In this document: in pieces, positions 28,730 to 34,770 of the stretch
Position numbering within the stretch: the stretch's first letter is position 1
Layout: every line of letters begins with the position of its first letter
The notes under the pieces: generated by a model
The model's input: only the letters and a program-made list of their open reading frames with translations
Database searches by the model: none
Told to the model about the DNA's origin: nothing
Assembly: GCF_000027125.1 (NCBI RefSeq)
Contig: NC_017626.1
From: Escherichia coli 042
GTDB lineage: Bacteria > Pseudomonadota > Gammaproteobacteria > Enterobacterales > Enterobacteriaceae
Direction: 5' to 3' (one strand)
Length of the DNA: 64,000 nt
Position numbers and translations under genes: made by a program

Positions 28730-28738
28730 CTGAGTTAA

Positions 28739-30682
28739 TTAAATCCTTAGCAGACGTTTGCAATTTGCAGCCGTTTGTTCTGCATCCTGGATATCCTGTT
28801 CCGACATTAAGCATCGCAACGCATCTTTTTCAATCCAGGGGTTGTTATTTCCGGCAATTGTTAGCCACATCCATGCTTGTTTATTATCAATTTTAGTGCC
28901 TGTCCCCTGAGCATACATTGCCGCAGTCTGGTGCTGCGCCTCGGTCGACCCTAAACGCGCCGCTTTTTCGTACCAGTGCAGCGCATGATTTTCATCTTTT
29001 ATGGTATCTTTTGTACCGTACAGATACATTTCGGCTAACAAAAATATCGCCTCTATTTGCCCACGCTGCGCTGCACCAGTAATCCATTGAATAGCCTCTG
29101 CGTTATTTTCAGGATCATCATTGTTGGTTAAATAATATTTCCCCAATTCATACATGGCCTCCCCTGCCCCATCTGTCCCATTTTTTGCTACTTTGGTAAA
29201 CCAGTACAGCGCTTTTTCCTGGTCCTGTAGAATACTCTCACTTTCGCTATACAACCTGGCAGTATGATATTGCGCATATAAATATCCCTGTTCTGCTGAT
29301 TGCAAAAGCCAACGATGGGCCTGTACCTTATCACGTGCCACACCAATCCCGTGTATATACATTTGTCCCAAATCATACTGGGCACGCTCATGTCCTTGTG
29401 TGGCGGCAGATAAATACCACCGTAATGCTTCTTCATAATTTCGTAATGGCTCAACAGCGAAGCGTGAGATACGGGCAATCTCATATTGCGCAGATGCGTT
29501 GCCATTTTTGGCAGCAAGTAAAAACCATTTTCGTGCCTCACTAATATTCTTATCCGTGCCCCTTCCATCGCGATACATGATGCCCAGCGCATACTGAGCA
29601 TCGATAACATTATGCTGCGCGGCGCGGGTAAACCAGTTAAAGGCTAATTTTAGATCCTGTGAAACCTCATCACCTTCATAATACATTTTGCCAAGAGAAT
29701 ACCAGGCAAGTGAATAGCCTTGCTCTGCAGCATGTAAGCAGGACTGGAATACAGAAGATGGATAATAAAAAAGACCTTTTAATTTTATGGCATTTAGCAA
29801 CTTTTTATATCCACTATGATGTTGCATTGCTAAATTATTGAAGCGTTCTGTTAATTTCCACTTGCGAATCATTTTTTCTTTTCGCCAGGAATATGATAAA
29901 CGCTCTATTAACAATGCCATATAGTTGTCTGATAGTTCAAATCCAGCGACTTTATTTAATACTGCGATATCAAACCATTTCAGGCTCTCTTCATTATCCT
30001 TTAATGATTGATAAATCGTAGCCATTTCCTTCCCGTTTTCCATTTCTTCCAGTGGAGACGAGTTACTGCCAAAGAAAGGGGTAATTTGTTTTTCGATTCG
30101 TGAATAAAGAAGACAACTTTCGTTAATTTCTGTCTGGATAGCTGGTTGACGGCTGCCTGCAACTAAATGCCATCTGAACGTTTGTGCAGCAGCGAGAGTT
30201 AATAATGGCCGGAATACCCGATGAAGATGCAGTAATAACGCTTCTTCAAAGCTCATTCGTGAGCTGAGATCTTTTTTCTCAAGGAAAGATAACGCCTTAG
30301 CAAGTTGCATGGGGGCGTGTTCGGGGGTTGCTTCATTCTCCTCACAGAGCATATCCAGCACGGCTTGCCAGGTGAATTCCTCCTCTGATTTAATAGTGAC
30401 ATCAGGAAGTGGATGACCAGAAAAGGTGTTGAGTGCGCGAAATGTCATCACAGGACGAGGATGAACAATACCCCTGGATATATTGATCGGTTGCTCTTCT
30501 TCCTCTTCTTGCCACTGATCTTCGTCGTCATAACGTAAAGCCTGTTCATAAGCATCGTGCAATTGTTGCCAGGCTTCGGGAGAATCTTCCGGGCGGCAAT
30601 TTTTTACCAGTTGCGCATAACGACGCTTAATATCTCGTTCTTCCGCGCCAGGTTGTAAACCTAATATTTCCCAGCAGTTCAT
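28739..30682 (-). CDS. J-like domain / Sel1-repeat protein, putative co-chaperone of the adjacent Hsp70
   Basis: ORF track 28739..30697 trimmed to ATG at 30682, which overlaps the upstream Hsp70 stop as ATGA. N-terminus CWEILGLQPGAEERDIKRRYAQLVKNCRPEDSPEAWQQLHDAYEQAL resembles a J domain but has RPE where HPD is expected; acidic linker; C-terminal half contains multiple Sel1-like repeats (AQYALGIMYRDGRGTDKNISEARKWFLLAAKNG, AQYDLGQMYIHGIGVARDKVQAHRWLLQSAEQG). Not a K-12 gene I recognise at this locus. Confidence 0.7.
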   Translation of the reverse strand: MNCWEILGLQPGAEERDIKRRYAQLVKNCRPEDSPEAWQQLHDAYEQALRYDDEDQWQEEEEEQPINISRGIVHPRPVMTFRALNTFSGHPLPDVTIKSEEEFTWQAVLDMLCEENEATPEHAPMQLAKALSFLEKKDLSSRMSFEEALLLHLHRVFRPLLTLAAAQTFRWHLVAGSRQPAIQTEINESCLLYSRIEKQITPFFGSNSSPLEEMENGKEMATIYQSLKDNEESLKWFDIAVLNKVAGFELSDNYMALLIERLSYSWRKEKMIRKWKLTERFNNLAMQHHSGYKKLLNAIKLKGLFYYPSSVFQSCLHAAEQGYSLAWYSLGKMYYEGDEVSQDLKLAFNWFTRAAQHNVIDAQYALGIMYRDGRGTDKNISEARKWFLLAAKNGNASAQYEIARISRFAVEPLRNYEEALRWYLSAATQGHERAQYDLGQMYIHGIGVARDKVQAHRWLLQSAEQGYLYAQYHTARLYSESESILQDQEKALYWFTKVAKNGTDGAGEAMYELGKYYLTNNDDPENNAEAIQWITGAAQRGQIEAIFLLAEMYLYGTKDTIKDENHALHWYEKAARLGSTEAQHQTAAMYAQGTGTKIDNKQAWMWLTIAGNNNPWIEKDALRCLMSEQDIQDAEQTAANCKRLLRI

Positions 30683-32379
30683 TGTAGACGCTCCCATTCC
30701 AGAGAGTCTAATGTCGGTTCAACTTTAGCCCGAAAATCAGCTAGTTGATCAGGATCCTGCTTCTCGAGTAGATAACTGAATTGACGAGAGCAATTGCTTA
30801 TCCAGTCTCGTGTTTCCGCCAGGGTGAGTTGATAGAGATTATCAAGACGGGCAATAAAGGCCTGGTTTATCTGTTCATCGCGTGGGTGAATTTTTAACAG
30901 GCTTAATTTGGACAACGACTGCTGTATTTGTTCTGCCGTTAATGCCCCTGGGTTCTGTTCAATAACCAGACTATTTTTAGCCCCTGTCAGTGGCACGCTG
31001 ATATCGACATCAAGAATACCGTTAATGTCGTACGTAAAACGAACATCAATACGCACATTACCGGCCGGTTTTGGCGGAACATTCACTGACAACTCCGCAA
31101 GGAAAATATTATCACCCACCATCCTGCTTTCACCCTGGTAGATTTTAAAATTAACCTCTGTTTGTTGATCATGTGCCGTATAAAAGGCACGAACGCGACT
31201 ACAAGGAATACTTCGGTTACGCTCAATAACGGGTGCAAAATAGCCTGATTCGCGGGTATGCCCCAGCGATTTAGAGGTATCAACGCCAAGTGTATAAGGG
31301 CAAACATCGGTCACTACTACATCTTGTAATTCGCTGTGCCGCGCTTTAAGTGCGGCCTGAATAGCCGCGCCCTGAGCAATGACTTCATCCGGGTTTAAAT
31401 GCATTGCCGGTATACGACCAAAAAGTTGTGTCACAAGTTTGCGAATCAGCGGCATACGTGTAGTGCCACCCACAAGAACAACCTGGTCTAATTGGCTAAT
31501 ATTAATTTTTGCATCGCGAATTGCCCGTTCCAGTGGCATACGGATTCGCTCGAAAAATGCCTGTAATAAAAATTCAAATTTTTCTGTGGTCAGATGCCAG
31601 TAATATCGCCTTCCTTCAATCTCCACACTGAAAGTTGCTTCGTCACGCATACTAAGCACGCGTTTGACACGCTCAGCCTCAATGCGTAAATGGCGTTGGA
31701 GTGTCGGTTCACGCCATTCAATATTTTCAGGAAGATCCATACGTGAGCAATATGCATCGATCAGGATATCGACAATATCTTCACCACCTAAAAAGTTATC
31801 CCCGGCACTGGCTCGTACTTCCATAATATTGTCAAACAACTCCAGTATGGAGATATCAAACGTACCACCACCTAAATCGAATACCAAAAATTGATGTTCA
31901 TCATCTTTATTATGCAAACCATACGCCAGTGCAGCGGCGGTTGGTTCGTTAATTAAACGTTCGACGTTTAAGCCTGCCATTGAAGCTGCCAATTTTGTTG
32001 CTTTGCGTTGCACATCACCAAAATAAGCAGGTACGCTAATTACTGCTTCTGTTATCTCTTCACCTAAATAGCTTTCAGCATCATCTTTTAGCTGACGCAG
32101 TATCAGCGATGAGAGTTCCTCTGCCCGAAATTCACGTCCGCCCAATTTAAACGTCTTTGATGTGCCCATCATGCGTTTAAAATTGGCTGCACAGTTTTGT
32201 GGTTTGATGAGTTGCAGGTCACGAGCTGCCTCCCCTGTCAAAACCATACCATCTTCGTCAACACAAACTACGCTGGGTGTTAAAAACTTGCCTAACGCAT
32301 TGGGGATCAGTTCACTTTGTCCATTTCGCCATACCGCTGCCAGACTGTTAGTCGTCCCGAGGTCAATACCGATAATCAT
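30679..32379 (-). CDS. Hsp70-family ATPase, HscC-like
   Basis: ORF track 30679..32394 (TTG) trimmed to ATG at 32379 with AAGAGGA Shine-Dalgarno. Hsp70 motifs present: IGIDLGTTNS (phosphate 1), FDLGGGTFD (phosphate 2), VLVGGTTRMP (adenosine), beta-sandwich substrate-binding region VTDVCPYTLGVDT; about 566 aa, shorter than DnaK. Confidence 0.75.
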   Translation of the reverse strand: MIIGIDLGTTNSLAAVWRNGQSELIPNALGKFLTPSVVCVDEDGMVLTGEAARDLQLIKPQNCAANFKRMMGTSKTFKLGGREFRAEELSSLILRQLKDDAESYLGEEITEAVISVPAYFGDVQRKATKLAASMAGLNVERLINEPTAAALAYGLHNKDDEHQFLVFDLGGGTFDISILELFDNIMEVRASAGDNFLGGEDIVDILIDAYCSRMDLPENIEWREPTLQRHLRIEAERVKRVLSMRDEATFSVEIEGRRYYWHLTTEKFEFLLQAFFERIRMPLERAIRDAKINISQLDQVVLVGGTTRMPLIRKLVTQLFGRIPAMHLNPDEVIAQGAAIQAALKARHSELQDVVVTDVCPYTLGVDTSKSLGHTRESGYFAPVIERNRSIPCSRVRAFYTAHDQQTEVNFKIYQGESRMVGDNIFLAELSVNVPPKPAGNVRIDVRFTYDINGILDVDISVPLTGAKNSLVIEQNPGALTAEQIQQSLSKLSLLKIHPRDEQINQAFIARLDNLYQLTLAETRDWISNCSRQFSYLLEKQDPDQLADFRAKVEPTLDSLEWERLQ

Positions 32380-32394
32380 AATTATCCTCTTCAA

Positions 32395-32560
32395 ATAAAT
32401 GAACTGATCATTTTATAGAGCAGTTATATATATTCATTTTGTGAATAATGTTCACAATCCCTGCGTTTAAAAATAATTTATAATGATGCAATCCATAACA
32501 TAACTTACGTGAATATAAAGATATTTCGTTTATAATTTTAGCTGTGGGTACTTATATCAT
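32395..32560 (-). promoter_or_regulatory. AT-rich upstream region, presumed promoter of the Hsp70 operon
   Basis: About 165 bp of very AT-rich sequence immediately upstream of the Hsp70 start; typical of promoters of horizontally acquired genes and of H-NS-bound DNA; no specific -35/-10 assigned. Confidence 0.3.
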
Positions 32561-32574
32561 ATACTCTAAATAAT

Positions 32575-32770
32575 TCGATTTGTAGGAAGGCAGCAAGTAA
32601 GTGAATCCCGAGGAGCTTACATAAGTAAGTGACTGGGCTGAACGACAAATCCGCATGGAGCGGATTTGAACGCTGCTTTCAGCGGCCCCGTAAGGGGTGA
32701 GGCCCATGGATGGGCCGAATAACCCGCAGACGCAGCACATGCAACTTGAAGCATGACGAGTATAACCAAT
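32575..32770. other. GC-rich structured non-coding segment (candidate small RNA or gene remnant)
   Basis: No convincing ORF; direct repeat AAGTAAGTGA twice 30 bp apart (32596-32605, 32623-32632); hairpins AATCCGC-ATGGAG-CGGATTT, CCCC-GTAA-GGGG (GNRA-type loop) and GGCCC-ATGGAT-GGGCC; followed by the 32771-32808 terminator hairpin. Confidence 0.25.
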
Positions 32771-32823: not shown

Positions 32824-34770
32824 TTAATTAGCAGAATCCGTATTATCTTTTTTGGGCTTTGCCGCTTTTTTCACACGATTATTGGGTGCTTTTTTAACAG
32901 CCCCCCCACCTGGTGCCACAATTCCTCTAAACCGTCTGACCGGAGTGCTACGAGCCTGATCAATCAGTTGGTAAAGCGTCCCCACCAACGGCTGCATAAA
33001 GTCCTGATAGCGACACTGCTTTTCGCTGATTTGCGTCAGCACCGATTCCCAGTGCGCGGTCATGTCCGGTCTCGTTGCCATCTCCGGCAGCGAATGGAAT
33101 AACGCTTTTCCAGCGTCGGTGGAGTGGATATAGCGCCCTTTTTTGGTCAGGAAACCACGCTTGAACAACAGTTCAATAATCCCGGCACGTGTTGCTTCTG
33201 TCCCCAGACCATCGGTAGCACGGAGGATCTTTTTCAGATCTTTGTCCTGCACAAAGCGCGCGATCCCGGTCATCGCCGAAAGCAGTGTTGCATCGGTAAA
33301 ATGGCGCGGCGGCTGCGTTTGCCGCTCTACCACTTCACCTTTTTCACACAGCAACTCATCGCCTTTCGCCACCACAGGCAGCGGCGTGCCATCGTTTTCT
33401 TCATCGCGCTCTTTGCTGCCTAACAGCGTGCGCCAGCCTGCTTCGGCAAGAAAACGGGCTTTAGCGACAAATTTACCTTTGGCTATTTCCAGTTCGATAA
33501 CACACTTGCGGAACACCGCATCCGGGCAGAACTGCATCAGGTATTGACGAGCAATCAGGTTATAGACCTTCGATTCGTTCTCCGTCAGGTTGATCGCAGA
33601 ACTCCGTGCGGTCGGGATGATGGCGTGGTGCGCATCGACCTTTTTGTCATCCCAGCAGCGGTTGCGTATATCTGGATCGACCACTGGCTGCGGTAACAAC
33701 CCCGGTGCATGAACGCTGATGGCATTCATCACTGCGTGGCGTCCGGCAAAATGCTCTTCCGGCAGATAGCGACAATCGGAACGCGGATAAGTGATTAGCT
33801 TGTGCGTTTCGTACAACTTCTGGCAGATATCAAGCACGTTCTGCGCACTCAGACCAAAGCGTTTTGCCGCTTCAATCTGCAACGCCGAAAGCGAAAACGG
33901 CAGCGGTGCGGATTCTGATTCCCGTTTATCGTTATAGCTGGTGACTATAGCCGGTTGACCACTAATGCGGTTAACCACATGCTCCGCCAGTGGACGATGT
34001 AACAAGCGCCCTTCTTCATCCTGGTACGGTTCACACGCTTCGCTCGGTTGCCAGATAGCGGTAAACCGCTCATCGGCAGGTGTCACGATATGTGCTTTGA
34101 CTTCAAAGAAGTCTTTCGCCACGAAGTTTTCAATCTCTTCGTCGCGGCGCACTACCAGCCCGAGCACGGGCGTCTGCACGCGTCCCACGGAAAGCACGCC
34201 CTGATAACCCGCATTGCGACCGAGAATGGTGTAAGCGCGGGTCATATTGATTCCGTACAGCCAGTCGGCTCGGGCTCGCGCCAGTGCAGAAACGCACAAC
34301 GGCACAAACTCACTGTTGGAACGAAGACGATCGATCGCCCGCTCAACCGCCTGCGGGTTCAGGTCGTTTATCAAGCAACGCTGCACCTGCTGGCGCTTTT
34401 CCGGTGCCAGTTGCAGATAGTCCAGCACTTCATCCACCAGTAATTGCCCTTCGCGATCCGGGTCACCGGCGTGAACGATTTCGCTGGCTTCATGCAGGAA
34501 GCGTTTGATGACATTAAGTTGTTTAGTCACGGAGGGTCGGGGCTGTAATTGCCACTTTTCCGGGACAATCGGCAAATCCGCAAGATTCCAGCGCGCATAG
34601 CGGCTGTCGTAGGCGTCTGGCTGCGCCTGCTCAAGCAGGTGACCGATACACCAGGTCACTACCTGACCATTACCGCACTCGATAAAGCCATCGCCTTTCC
34701 GGTGCGGTTTGGGCAGGACATCAGCAATGGCGCGCGCCAGACTCGGTTTTTCGGCAATAAACAACCGCAT
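32824..34770 (-). CDS. topB: DNA topoisomerase III
   Basis: ORF track 32824..34827 trimmed to ATG at 34770 ([19 protein letters not shown], Toprim N-terminus), 4 bp after the selD stop; gives 648 aa. Confidence 0.9.

Follow-up and report, generated by a model that had tools for sequence, protein, structure and literature searches.

The gdhA-topB interval of Escherichia coli 042 (contig NC_017626.1), contained in the 64,000-nucleotide stretch analysed here and hereafter called the window, is occupied by a pair of genes encoding an additional Hsp70 of the HscC type and a partner protein in which a J-like domain is fused to a Sel1 repeat array. We consider this pair, with a probability of about 0.6, to be a self-contained and dedicated HscC-class Hsp70 chaperone module in which the Sel1 adaptor selects the client. 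The open reading frame (ORF) list contained two long minus-strand ORFs that together fill the interval, and the RefSeq annotation, taken from E. coli strain Ecol_316, which is 100% identical to the window, names the 566-aa product of window 30679-32379 "Hsp70 family protein" and the 647-aa product of window 28739-30682 "J domain-containing protein". The first assignment was also supported by Pfam and by alignment with HscC, and the second by Pfam and an AlphaFold model. These sources agree with the two-gene minus-strand Hsp70 and J-like/Sel1 operon that an earlier reading of the letters without database searches (the sequence-only reading) had placed between gdhA and topB. The hsp70 stop codon and the adaptor start codon overlap by 4 nt in the sequence ATGA (30679..30682, minus strand), which implies translational coupling of the two genes, and the same overlap was present in every locus found (L009, L010, L011, L012, L014, and L015).

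An HscC-type Hsp70 distinct from hscC

The product of the first gene (30679..32379, minus strand) matched the Pfam family HSP70 (PF00012) over residues 7-496 with an E-value of 6.5e-135. This full-length profile match, together with the phosphate-1, phosphate-2, and adenosine motifs, places it in the Hsp70 superfamily. The catalytic and allosteric residues D8, K70, E171, D194, and T199 (DnaK numbering) were invariant in an alignment with DnaK, HscC, and relatives, and the arginine equivalent to DnaK R167, the residue that contacts the J-domain, is also retained. Its best scores against the NCBIfam models of DnaK (445.8, cut-off 648) and HscA (420.2, cut-off 708.6) fell below the thresholds of both families. 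Identity to K-12 HscC was 43% from end to end, versus 36% to DnaK.

The HscC subfamily is described as having a length of 550-580 aa, a deletion corresponding to DnaK residues 76-101, and loss of the GrpE-signature loop, and its substrate-binding domain (SBD) as having a 4-8 residue insertion in loop L1,2 of SBD-beta and a shortened lid (Mayer review, PMC8215388). All of these features were found in the 566-aa window protein, which has four indels in common with K-12 HscC. It is built from the NBD (nucleotide-binding domain), the interdomain linker DVVVTDVCPYTLG, an SBD-beta whose loop L1,2 carries 8 inserted residues, and a lid that is short. The intact ATPase motifs and HscC-like length noted by the sequence-only reading were therefore confirmed.

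Ecol_316 also has the complete ybeQ-ybeR-djlB-ybeT-ybeU-djlC-hscC cluster. Since this cluster coexists with the pair in one genome and the two Hsp70s are only 43% identical, the window protein is an additional paralogue and not the orthologue of hscC, so that carrier strains can have four Hsp70s, namely DnaK, HscA, HscC, and the window Hsp70. The hscC gene is itself not universal, as 4376 of the 5426 complete genomes of E. coli carry it (query L004 7724-9394).

A J-like adaptor with a Sel1 repeat solenoid

The second gene (28739..30682, minus strand) encodes a 647-aa protein in which five segments were distinguished by Pfam, profile comparison, and AlphaFold models (mean pLDDT 84.7 for the full length and 80 for residues 1-322). 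The N-terminal J-like domain (residues 1-50; 30533..30682) was matched only weakly by Pfam DnaJ (residues 8-51, 2e-4). A profile built from nine relatives matched solved J domains, with the arginine of the family aligned under the histidine of the HPD tripeptide, and the triad R30-P31-E32 was invariant among these nine relatives. The model showed a three-helix domain with the J-domain fold, that is, helices I-III with a helix II/loop/helix III hairpin. Because RPE replaces HPD, the domain is J-like rather than canonical, as the sequence-only reading had described it.

The J-like domain is followed by an acidic, proline-containing linker (residues 51-104; 30371..30532), which was disordered in the model (pLDDT <50 over 54-101) and averaged 20% identity between relatives. 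The third segment is an all-helical middle domain specific to this family (residues 105-315; 29738..30370), modelled confidently over residues 105-320, for which no close relative was found among solved structures. A relationship of this domain to the DUF1266 proteins YnjI, YbeR, and YbeU was ruled out (hhalign probability 0.1%).

The fourth segment is a Sel1-like repeat solenoid (residues 316-620; 28823..29737). Pfam recognised Sel1 units within residues 333-618, of which five reached E<=1e-3 and another three to four scored less well, and the model contained about nine Sel1 helix pairs over residues 310-609, in keeping with a tandem solenoid of ~36-residue helix-turn-helix units. In a Foldseek search, this part matched EsiB and LceB (E 1e-16), LpnE, HcpC, and SEL1L/Hrd3. 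The protein ends in a capping helix (residues 621-647; 28739..28822 together with the stop codon; helix 628-645 in the model). No transmembrane segments were predicted (0). The solenoid, which we propose to be the client-binding part, was the most variable ordered part of the adaptor, and the C-terminal tail (621-647) showed no non-synonymous change within E. coli. No earlier description was found of this layout, in which a J-like domain with RPE is followed by a novel helical domain and then by Sel1 repeats.

Contrasting evolution of motor and adaptor

The two genes differ markedly in the ratio of non-synonymous to synonymous divergence (dN/dS). Between the window and Nissle 1917, dN/dS was 0.03 for gdhA, 0.09 for hsp70, 0.45 for the whole adaptor gene, and 0.55 for its Sel1 part. 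The value of 0.09 between E. coli alleles indicates that the Hsp70 is under purifying selection, whereas the adaptor changes quickly, above all in its repeats.

The same gradient was seen between tandem copies. Strain BH100N, among others, has two tandem adaptor genes. The identity of its second, divergent copy to the window adaptor was 94% for the J-like domain, 85% for the linker, and 63% for the middle domain, versus 31% for the Sel1 part and 26% for the tail. Such a pattern suggests that, in tandem adaptors, the presumed motor-recruiting end is kept constant while the presumed binding surface is replaced.

Relatives of the pair in other genera

To place the adaptor in a wider family, several sequence collections were searched. 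An exhaustive search of representative proteins with adaptor residues 1-322 returned five full-length relatives with 41-49% identity and about 2000 proteins that had only the J-like N-terminus in common. The matches of a word-indexed protein search were nearly all pieces of this one protein from E. coli, so that the five full-length relatives came to light only through the exhaustive search. Among the 114 best J-like proteins, the triad read RPD in 51, HPE in 23, RPE in 21, NPE in 5, and HPD in 1. By these counts, the J-like proteins form a clade of their own, whose members have mostly lost the canonical histidine. DjlB and DjlC are HPE members of this clade (PMC10410713), and DjlC was reported to stimulate the ATPase of HscC (PMC8215388).

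In nine Pseudomonas species, a gene for an HscC-type Hsp70 (51-54% identical to that of the window) is followed by an overlapping J-like gene, whose product has the same N-terminus fused to 3-5 transmembrane helices and is thus polytopic. A related pair with an Hsp70 of 44% identity was found in one Firmicutes metagenome-assembled genome. No conserved third gene was present in the Pseudomonas operons. Since only these two genes are conserved in the Pseudomonas and Firmicutes loci, the general unit is an HscC-type Hsp70 with a private J-like adaptor of variable C-terminus, and the window holds its soluble Sel1 version.

Closer relatives were found among enterobacteria. A scan of a genome collection, which used N-terminal peptide patterns only and mostly retrieved J-like domains of Pseudomonas and Enterococcus, yielded one full-length adaptor relative, in Klebsiella spallanzanii, where the pair is present with two adaptor copies. 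The AlphaFold database lists relatives under the species names K. huaxiensis and K. spallanzanii. The order topB-hsp70-adaptor(s)-gdhA was found in five further assemblies, including CP057243.1 (Escherichia-like), the metagenome scaffold L010, L012 (with contig L013), and L014 (CP056483.1), and on one contig the pair was in a different neighbourhood. Compared with the window, the proteins from other genera were 90-94% (gdhA), 90-97% (topB), 75-87% (Hsp70), and 37-41% (adaptor) identical. The translational coupling and the RPE triad were kept across these genera. Between one and three adaptor copies stand in tandem behind a single hsp70 (L002 3056-6976 in BH100N; L014; L011; L015), and in L014 (5945-13856) one copy is split by an insertion sequence (IS) encoding a DDE transposase and continues as fragments.

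Distribution and age of the locus in E. coli

The junction was surveyed across the 5426 complete genomes, and three states were found. The site is occupied by ynjI in 3457 genomes, is empty with 76 bp between gdhA and topB in 1514, and holds the Hsp70-adaptor pair in 351 (6.5%). The sequence-only reading had expected only ynjI, about 1 kb, at this place in K-12, and the K-12 interval does contain ynjI alone (1041 bp; L005 2332-3372). Carriers of the pair include Nissle 1917 and, by AlphaFold-database match, the uropathogenic E. coli (UPEC) strain 536. In Nissle 1917 (L003 6766-7566) and in L009 (5434-6234), an extra gene lies between hsp70 and topB, encoding a 266-aa protein with a signal-peptide-like N-terminus and having a GC content of 0.34. 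It is not present in the window, where an ERIC element and AT-rich DNA are found instead. Pfam, PADLOC, and PHROG searches with the 266-aa protein gave no match, and a relationship to YnjI was ruled out for want of a real BLASTP match.

The haplotypes are unrelated in sequence from the first base past the gdhA stop codon into the 3' end of topB. The haplotype-specific DNA of the window spans 28684 (the first base past the gdhA stop) to 32823 (the topB stop). The sequence-only reading had given 28735-32560; the locus is real, but its haplotype-specific DNA is slightly wider and includes the ERIC element. The 3' end of topB and the C-terminal tail of its product vary by locus haplotype, and the non-synonymous divergence (dN) of topB was 0.031 between the window and Nissle versus 0.005 between the window and BH100N. 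This contrast and the variable tail indicate that a haplotype recombination boundary lies inside topB.

Both coding sequences are AT-rich. Their GC content was 0.44, versus 0.54 in gdhA, topB, and selD, and their GC at third codon positions (GC3) was 0.38-0.39, versus 0.56-0.59 in the same three genes. This is the atypical composition expected of genomic islands, and it bears out the lower GC reported by the sequence-only reading. The counts of 14/60 and 19/60 on which that reading relied belong to real lines (29761 and 29821), but these were the two lowest of the 60 60-nt lines across the insert, whose mean was 26.4/60 versus 32.5/60 in gdhA.

From its composition, the insert had been suggested to be horizontally acquired, and it could be pictured as a recent foreign island, an AT-rich two-gene cassette that came from a distant donor to the gdhA-topB site and replaced ynjI. 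The absence of the pair from 93% of E. coli genomes and the exact start of haplotype-unrelated sequence at the gdhA stop codon would fit such an event as well. However, the annotation contained no mobility genes (neither integrase nor transposase), tRNA, or attachment-site repeats, a repeat scan found no flanking direct repeats, and searches of plasmid and phage collections returned no full-length copy. The alternative occupant ynjI is equally AT-rich (GC 0.41). Furthermore, the same pair is found at the same site in other enterobacterial contigs with an Hsp70 of 75-87% identity, and in higher-GC hosts its GC3 was 0.52-0.64 versus 0.67-0.71 in the flanks, indicating that its composition has moved toward that of the host. 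The synonymous divergence (dS) of hsp70 between E. coli alleles was about 0.2, the same as that of topB, which argues for long residence. Recent arrival as an island is thus unlikely, and the claim of horizontal acquisition was not upheld. Given the shared site in other enterobacterial contigs, a GC3 that partly tracks the host, and the dS of about 0.2, the locus looks like an old segregating polymorphism with three states (ynjI, empty, and pair).

Comparison with the hscC cluster and with other chaperone systems

The closest parallel in E. coli is the K-12 hscC-djlC-ybeU-ybeT-djlB-ybeR-ybeQ cluster, as the sequence-only reading had proposed. Its Hsp70 belongs to the same subfamily (43% identity, common indels), the N-termini of DjlC and DjlB belong to the same J-like clade as that of the adaptor (34-35% identity over about 50-86 residues), YbeQ is 35% identical to the Sel1 part, and the cluster is likewise AT-rich and accessory. 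The two systems nevertheless differ in their organisation. DjlB and DjlC are tail-anchored and YbeQ and YbeT are encoded by separate genes, whereas the window encodes a single soluble protein that unites the J-like and Sel1 parts. The triad is HPE in DjlB and DjlC and RPE in the window adaptor, the middle domain is family-specific, and the window genes are co-directional and overlapping while those of the hscC cluster are divergent. The 647-aa adaptor is therefore not of the DjlB/DjlC type, which is characterised by HPE, a C-terminal membrane anchor, and a length of ~480 aa.

The parallel extends to the alternative occupant of the site. YnjI of K-12 belongs to the DUF1266 family and is predicted to have two transmembrane helices. 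The genes ybeR and ybeU of the hscC cluster, whose products are DUF1266 proteins too, are translationally coupled to djlB and djlC through 4-nt overlaps. Genes of the four types Hsp70, J-like, Sel1, and DUF1266 are thus brought together at two E. coli loci. Sequence comparison revealed no relation between the ynjI and hsp70 haplotypes, and a literature search on DUF1266 returned nothing relevant.

Outside the family, the Pseudomonas operons contain the closest Hsp70 (51-54%). They share the gene order, the overlap, and the J-like N-terminus, here with RPD, but their adaptors end in 3-5 transmembrane helices and not in a middle domain and Sel1 solenoid. Among eukaryotic proteins, DNAJC3/p58IPK and DNAJC7 combine TPR and J domains. 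A comparable arrangement is formed by ERdj5, SEL1L, and BiP in endoplasmic-reticulum-associated degradation (ERAD) (PMC3596249). By analogy with these systems, in which a helical-repeat scaffold holds the client and the J domain recruits Hsp70, the window adaptor may work in a similar way, and SEL1L and Hrd3 are among the structural matches of its Sel1 part. However, the eukaryotic proteins order their domains differently and carry a canonical HPD, and common descent goes no further than the domain families.

Hsp70 and J-protein parts are also found in bacterial defence, and an anti-phage role was among those suggested by the sequence-only reading. In such a conflict module, the diversifying Sel1 array would recognise a foreign protein and the J-like domain would fire the Hsp70, which would then unfold or sequester the invader protein, or shut down a host factor, so that infection is aborted. 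This explanation would suit an AT-rich pair that only 6.5% of E. coli genomes carry, at a variable site with three states, an adaptor whose dN/dS is about five times that of the motor and highest in the Sel1 part, and tandem adaptor expansion with steep Sel1 divergence and one IS-disrupted copy. Precedents for chaperone parts in immunity are bNACHT25, which depends on DnaJ (PMC12169576), and the Hsp70-like domains of CoCoNuT systems, represented by CnuD (PMC11090510). Yet effectors or sensors can be recognised in these immune systems (McrBC, HEPN, NACHT), whereas no recognisable effector domain was found in the window pair, and the CoCoNuT Hsp70-like domains have degenerate ATPase motifs (PMC11090510), unlike the intact ones of the window Hsp70. 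No significant full-length match to a known anti-phage system was obtained from PADLOC-DB 2.0, which yielded only a partial PDC-M61B match (2e-4) and a repeat-level match of 45-49 residues to the PtuA1 N-terminus. Moreover, the locus is surrounded by housekeeping genes and no other defence gene adjoins it, the plasmid and phage collections hold no full-length copy, the chromosomal position is stable across genera, overall dN/dS is <1, and the literature searched describes no Hsp70/J/Sel1 defence system. The databases gave no support for an anti-phage role, which is improbable.

A variant of this idea, which we likewise consider quite improbable, is an immune module that needs no separate effector. 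Interchangeable and fast-diversifying Sel1 arrays would serve as pattern-recognition receptors for proteins of phages or other foreign sources. Licensed by the RPE domain, the private Hsp70 would itself act as the effector, either unfolding or sequestering its target or sequestering a host factor, and the ynjI haplotype and the hscC-djl-ybe cluster would be sister systems. Overproduced HscC reportedly binds sigma-70.

Proposed mechanism of the chaperone module

Returning to the dedicated chaperone module, the 566-aa Hsp70 would be its ATP-driven motor and the 647-aa partner its private co-chaperone and adaptor. The RPE J-like domain would dock at the NBD-linker interface of the Hsp70 and trigger ATP hydrolysis, while the disordered linker of ~50 residues would provide reach. 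The middle domain and the Sel1 solenoid would keep hold of a particular client or complex in its native form and pass it on to the SBD of the Hsp70. Where adaptors are duplicated, copies with the same motor-recruiting end and an altered Sel1 end could allow one motor to serve several clients. We infer that the AT-rich operon is silenced under laboratory conditions.

Several observations weigh against this reading. The histidine of HPD, which is essential in canonical J domains, is an arginine in the adaptor, so that canonical stimulation of the ATPase is not assured. A scan for consensus sigma-70 sequences upstream of hsp70 recognised no promoter, and a literature search on the RefSeq protein accessions returned no report of a client, phenotype, or expression. 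The adaptor dN/dS of 0.45 could be explained by relaxed constraint alone, the proposal of one motor with several adaptors derives solely from comparative patterns, and the patchy distribution and quick adaptor turnover would suit a conflict system equally well.

The pair could also be a decaying remnant, a silenced paralogue pair that is drifting to loss and has no current function. The 1514 genomes with an empty site, the elevated adaptor dN/dS, the failure to find a promoter, and the truncated adaptor fragments in databases would be expected from such decay. However, both frames were intact in the window and in all complete carrier genomes that were sampled, the Hsp70 has kept all catalytic residues at a dN/dS of 0.09, and other genera retain both the coupling and the RPE triad, which makes decay very improbable.

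Flanking genes and regulatory features

The pair is flanked by gdhA (27340-28683, plus strand) and topB (32824-34770, minus strand), the latter encoding 648 aa here versus 653 aa in K-12. The likely hsp70 start codon is the ATG at 32379, which is also the RefSeq start, because the sequence AAGAGGA precedes it at a suitable distance; the TTG at 32394, where the ORF was started mechanically, was disfavoured in comparison. The upstream region that contains this Shine-Dalgarno sequence (32380..32551, minus strand) was read as AT-rich, with a GC content of about 0.40, and no sigma-32-like CCCCAT box was visible in it. A palindrome, TTGTGAA-CATTA-TTCACAA (32436..32454), precedes the hsp70 start codon by about 57-75 nt and is kept in BH100N. 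It could be an operator, but the spacing of its half-sites does not suit CRP.

A long-form ERIC/IRU intergenic repeat (32552..32765) separates the hsp70 upstream region from the topB stop codon; it lies in the haplotype-specific DNA but outside the chaperone module. Near-matches to the two classical ERIC primer sequences occur within it. The 200-bp ERIC piece alone matched several hundred other E. coli genomes elsewhere, for example under yehK, and BH100N has a short ERIC form at the same place. At the other end, between the convergent gdhA and adaptor genes, a hairpin with a 12-bp stem (28694..28725) is probably a terminator, and a strict terminator scan left it unflagged. The hairpin is also present in the Nissle haplotype, and unrelated REP-like sequence takes its place in the ynjI and empty haplotypes. 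An Rfam search of the 27-35 kb region returned nothing above noise. Outside the window, a rhomboid-family protease gene adjoining gltI is annotated as frameshifted in Ecol_316 (L039 44351-46227).

Implications for Hsp70 biology

Three Hsp70s are usually ascribed to E. coli. The present locus adds a fourth in some lineages, including Nissle 1917 and UPEC 536, together with a private co-chaperone. The pair offers a compact natural system for studying how J-like domains that lack the HPD histidine drive Hsp70 and how repeat-array adaptors set client specificity. If adaptor diversification reflected conflict with phages or other elements, the pair would represent a new kind of defence mechanism. 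Furthermore, the occurrence of the same four gene types at two loci points to a shared function for the long-enigmatic HscC system.

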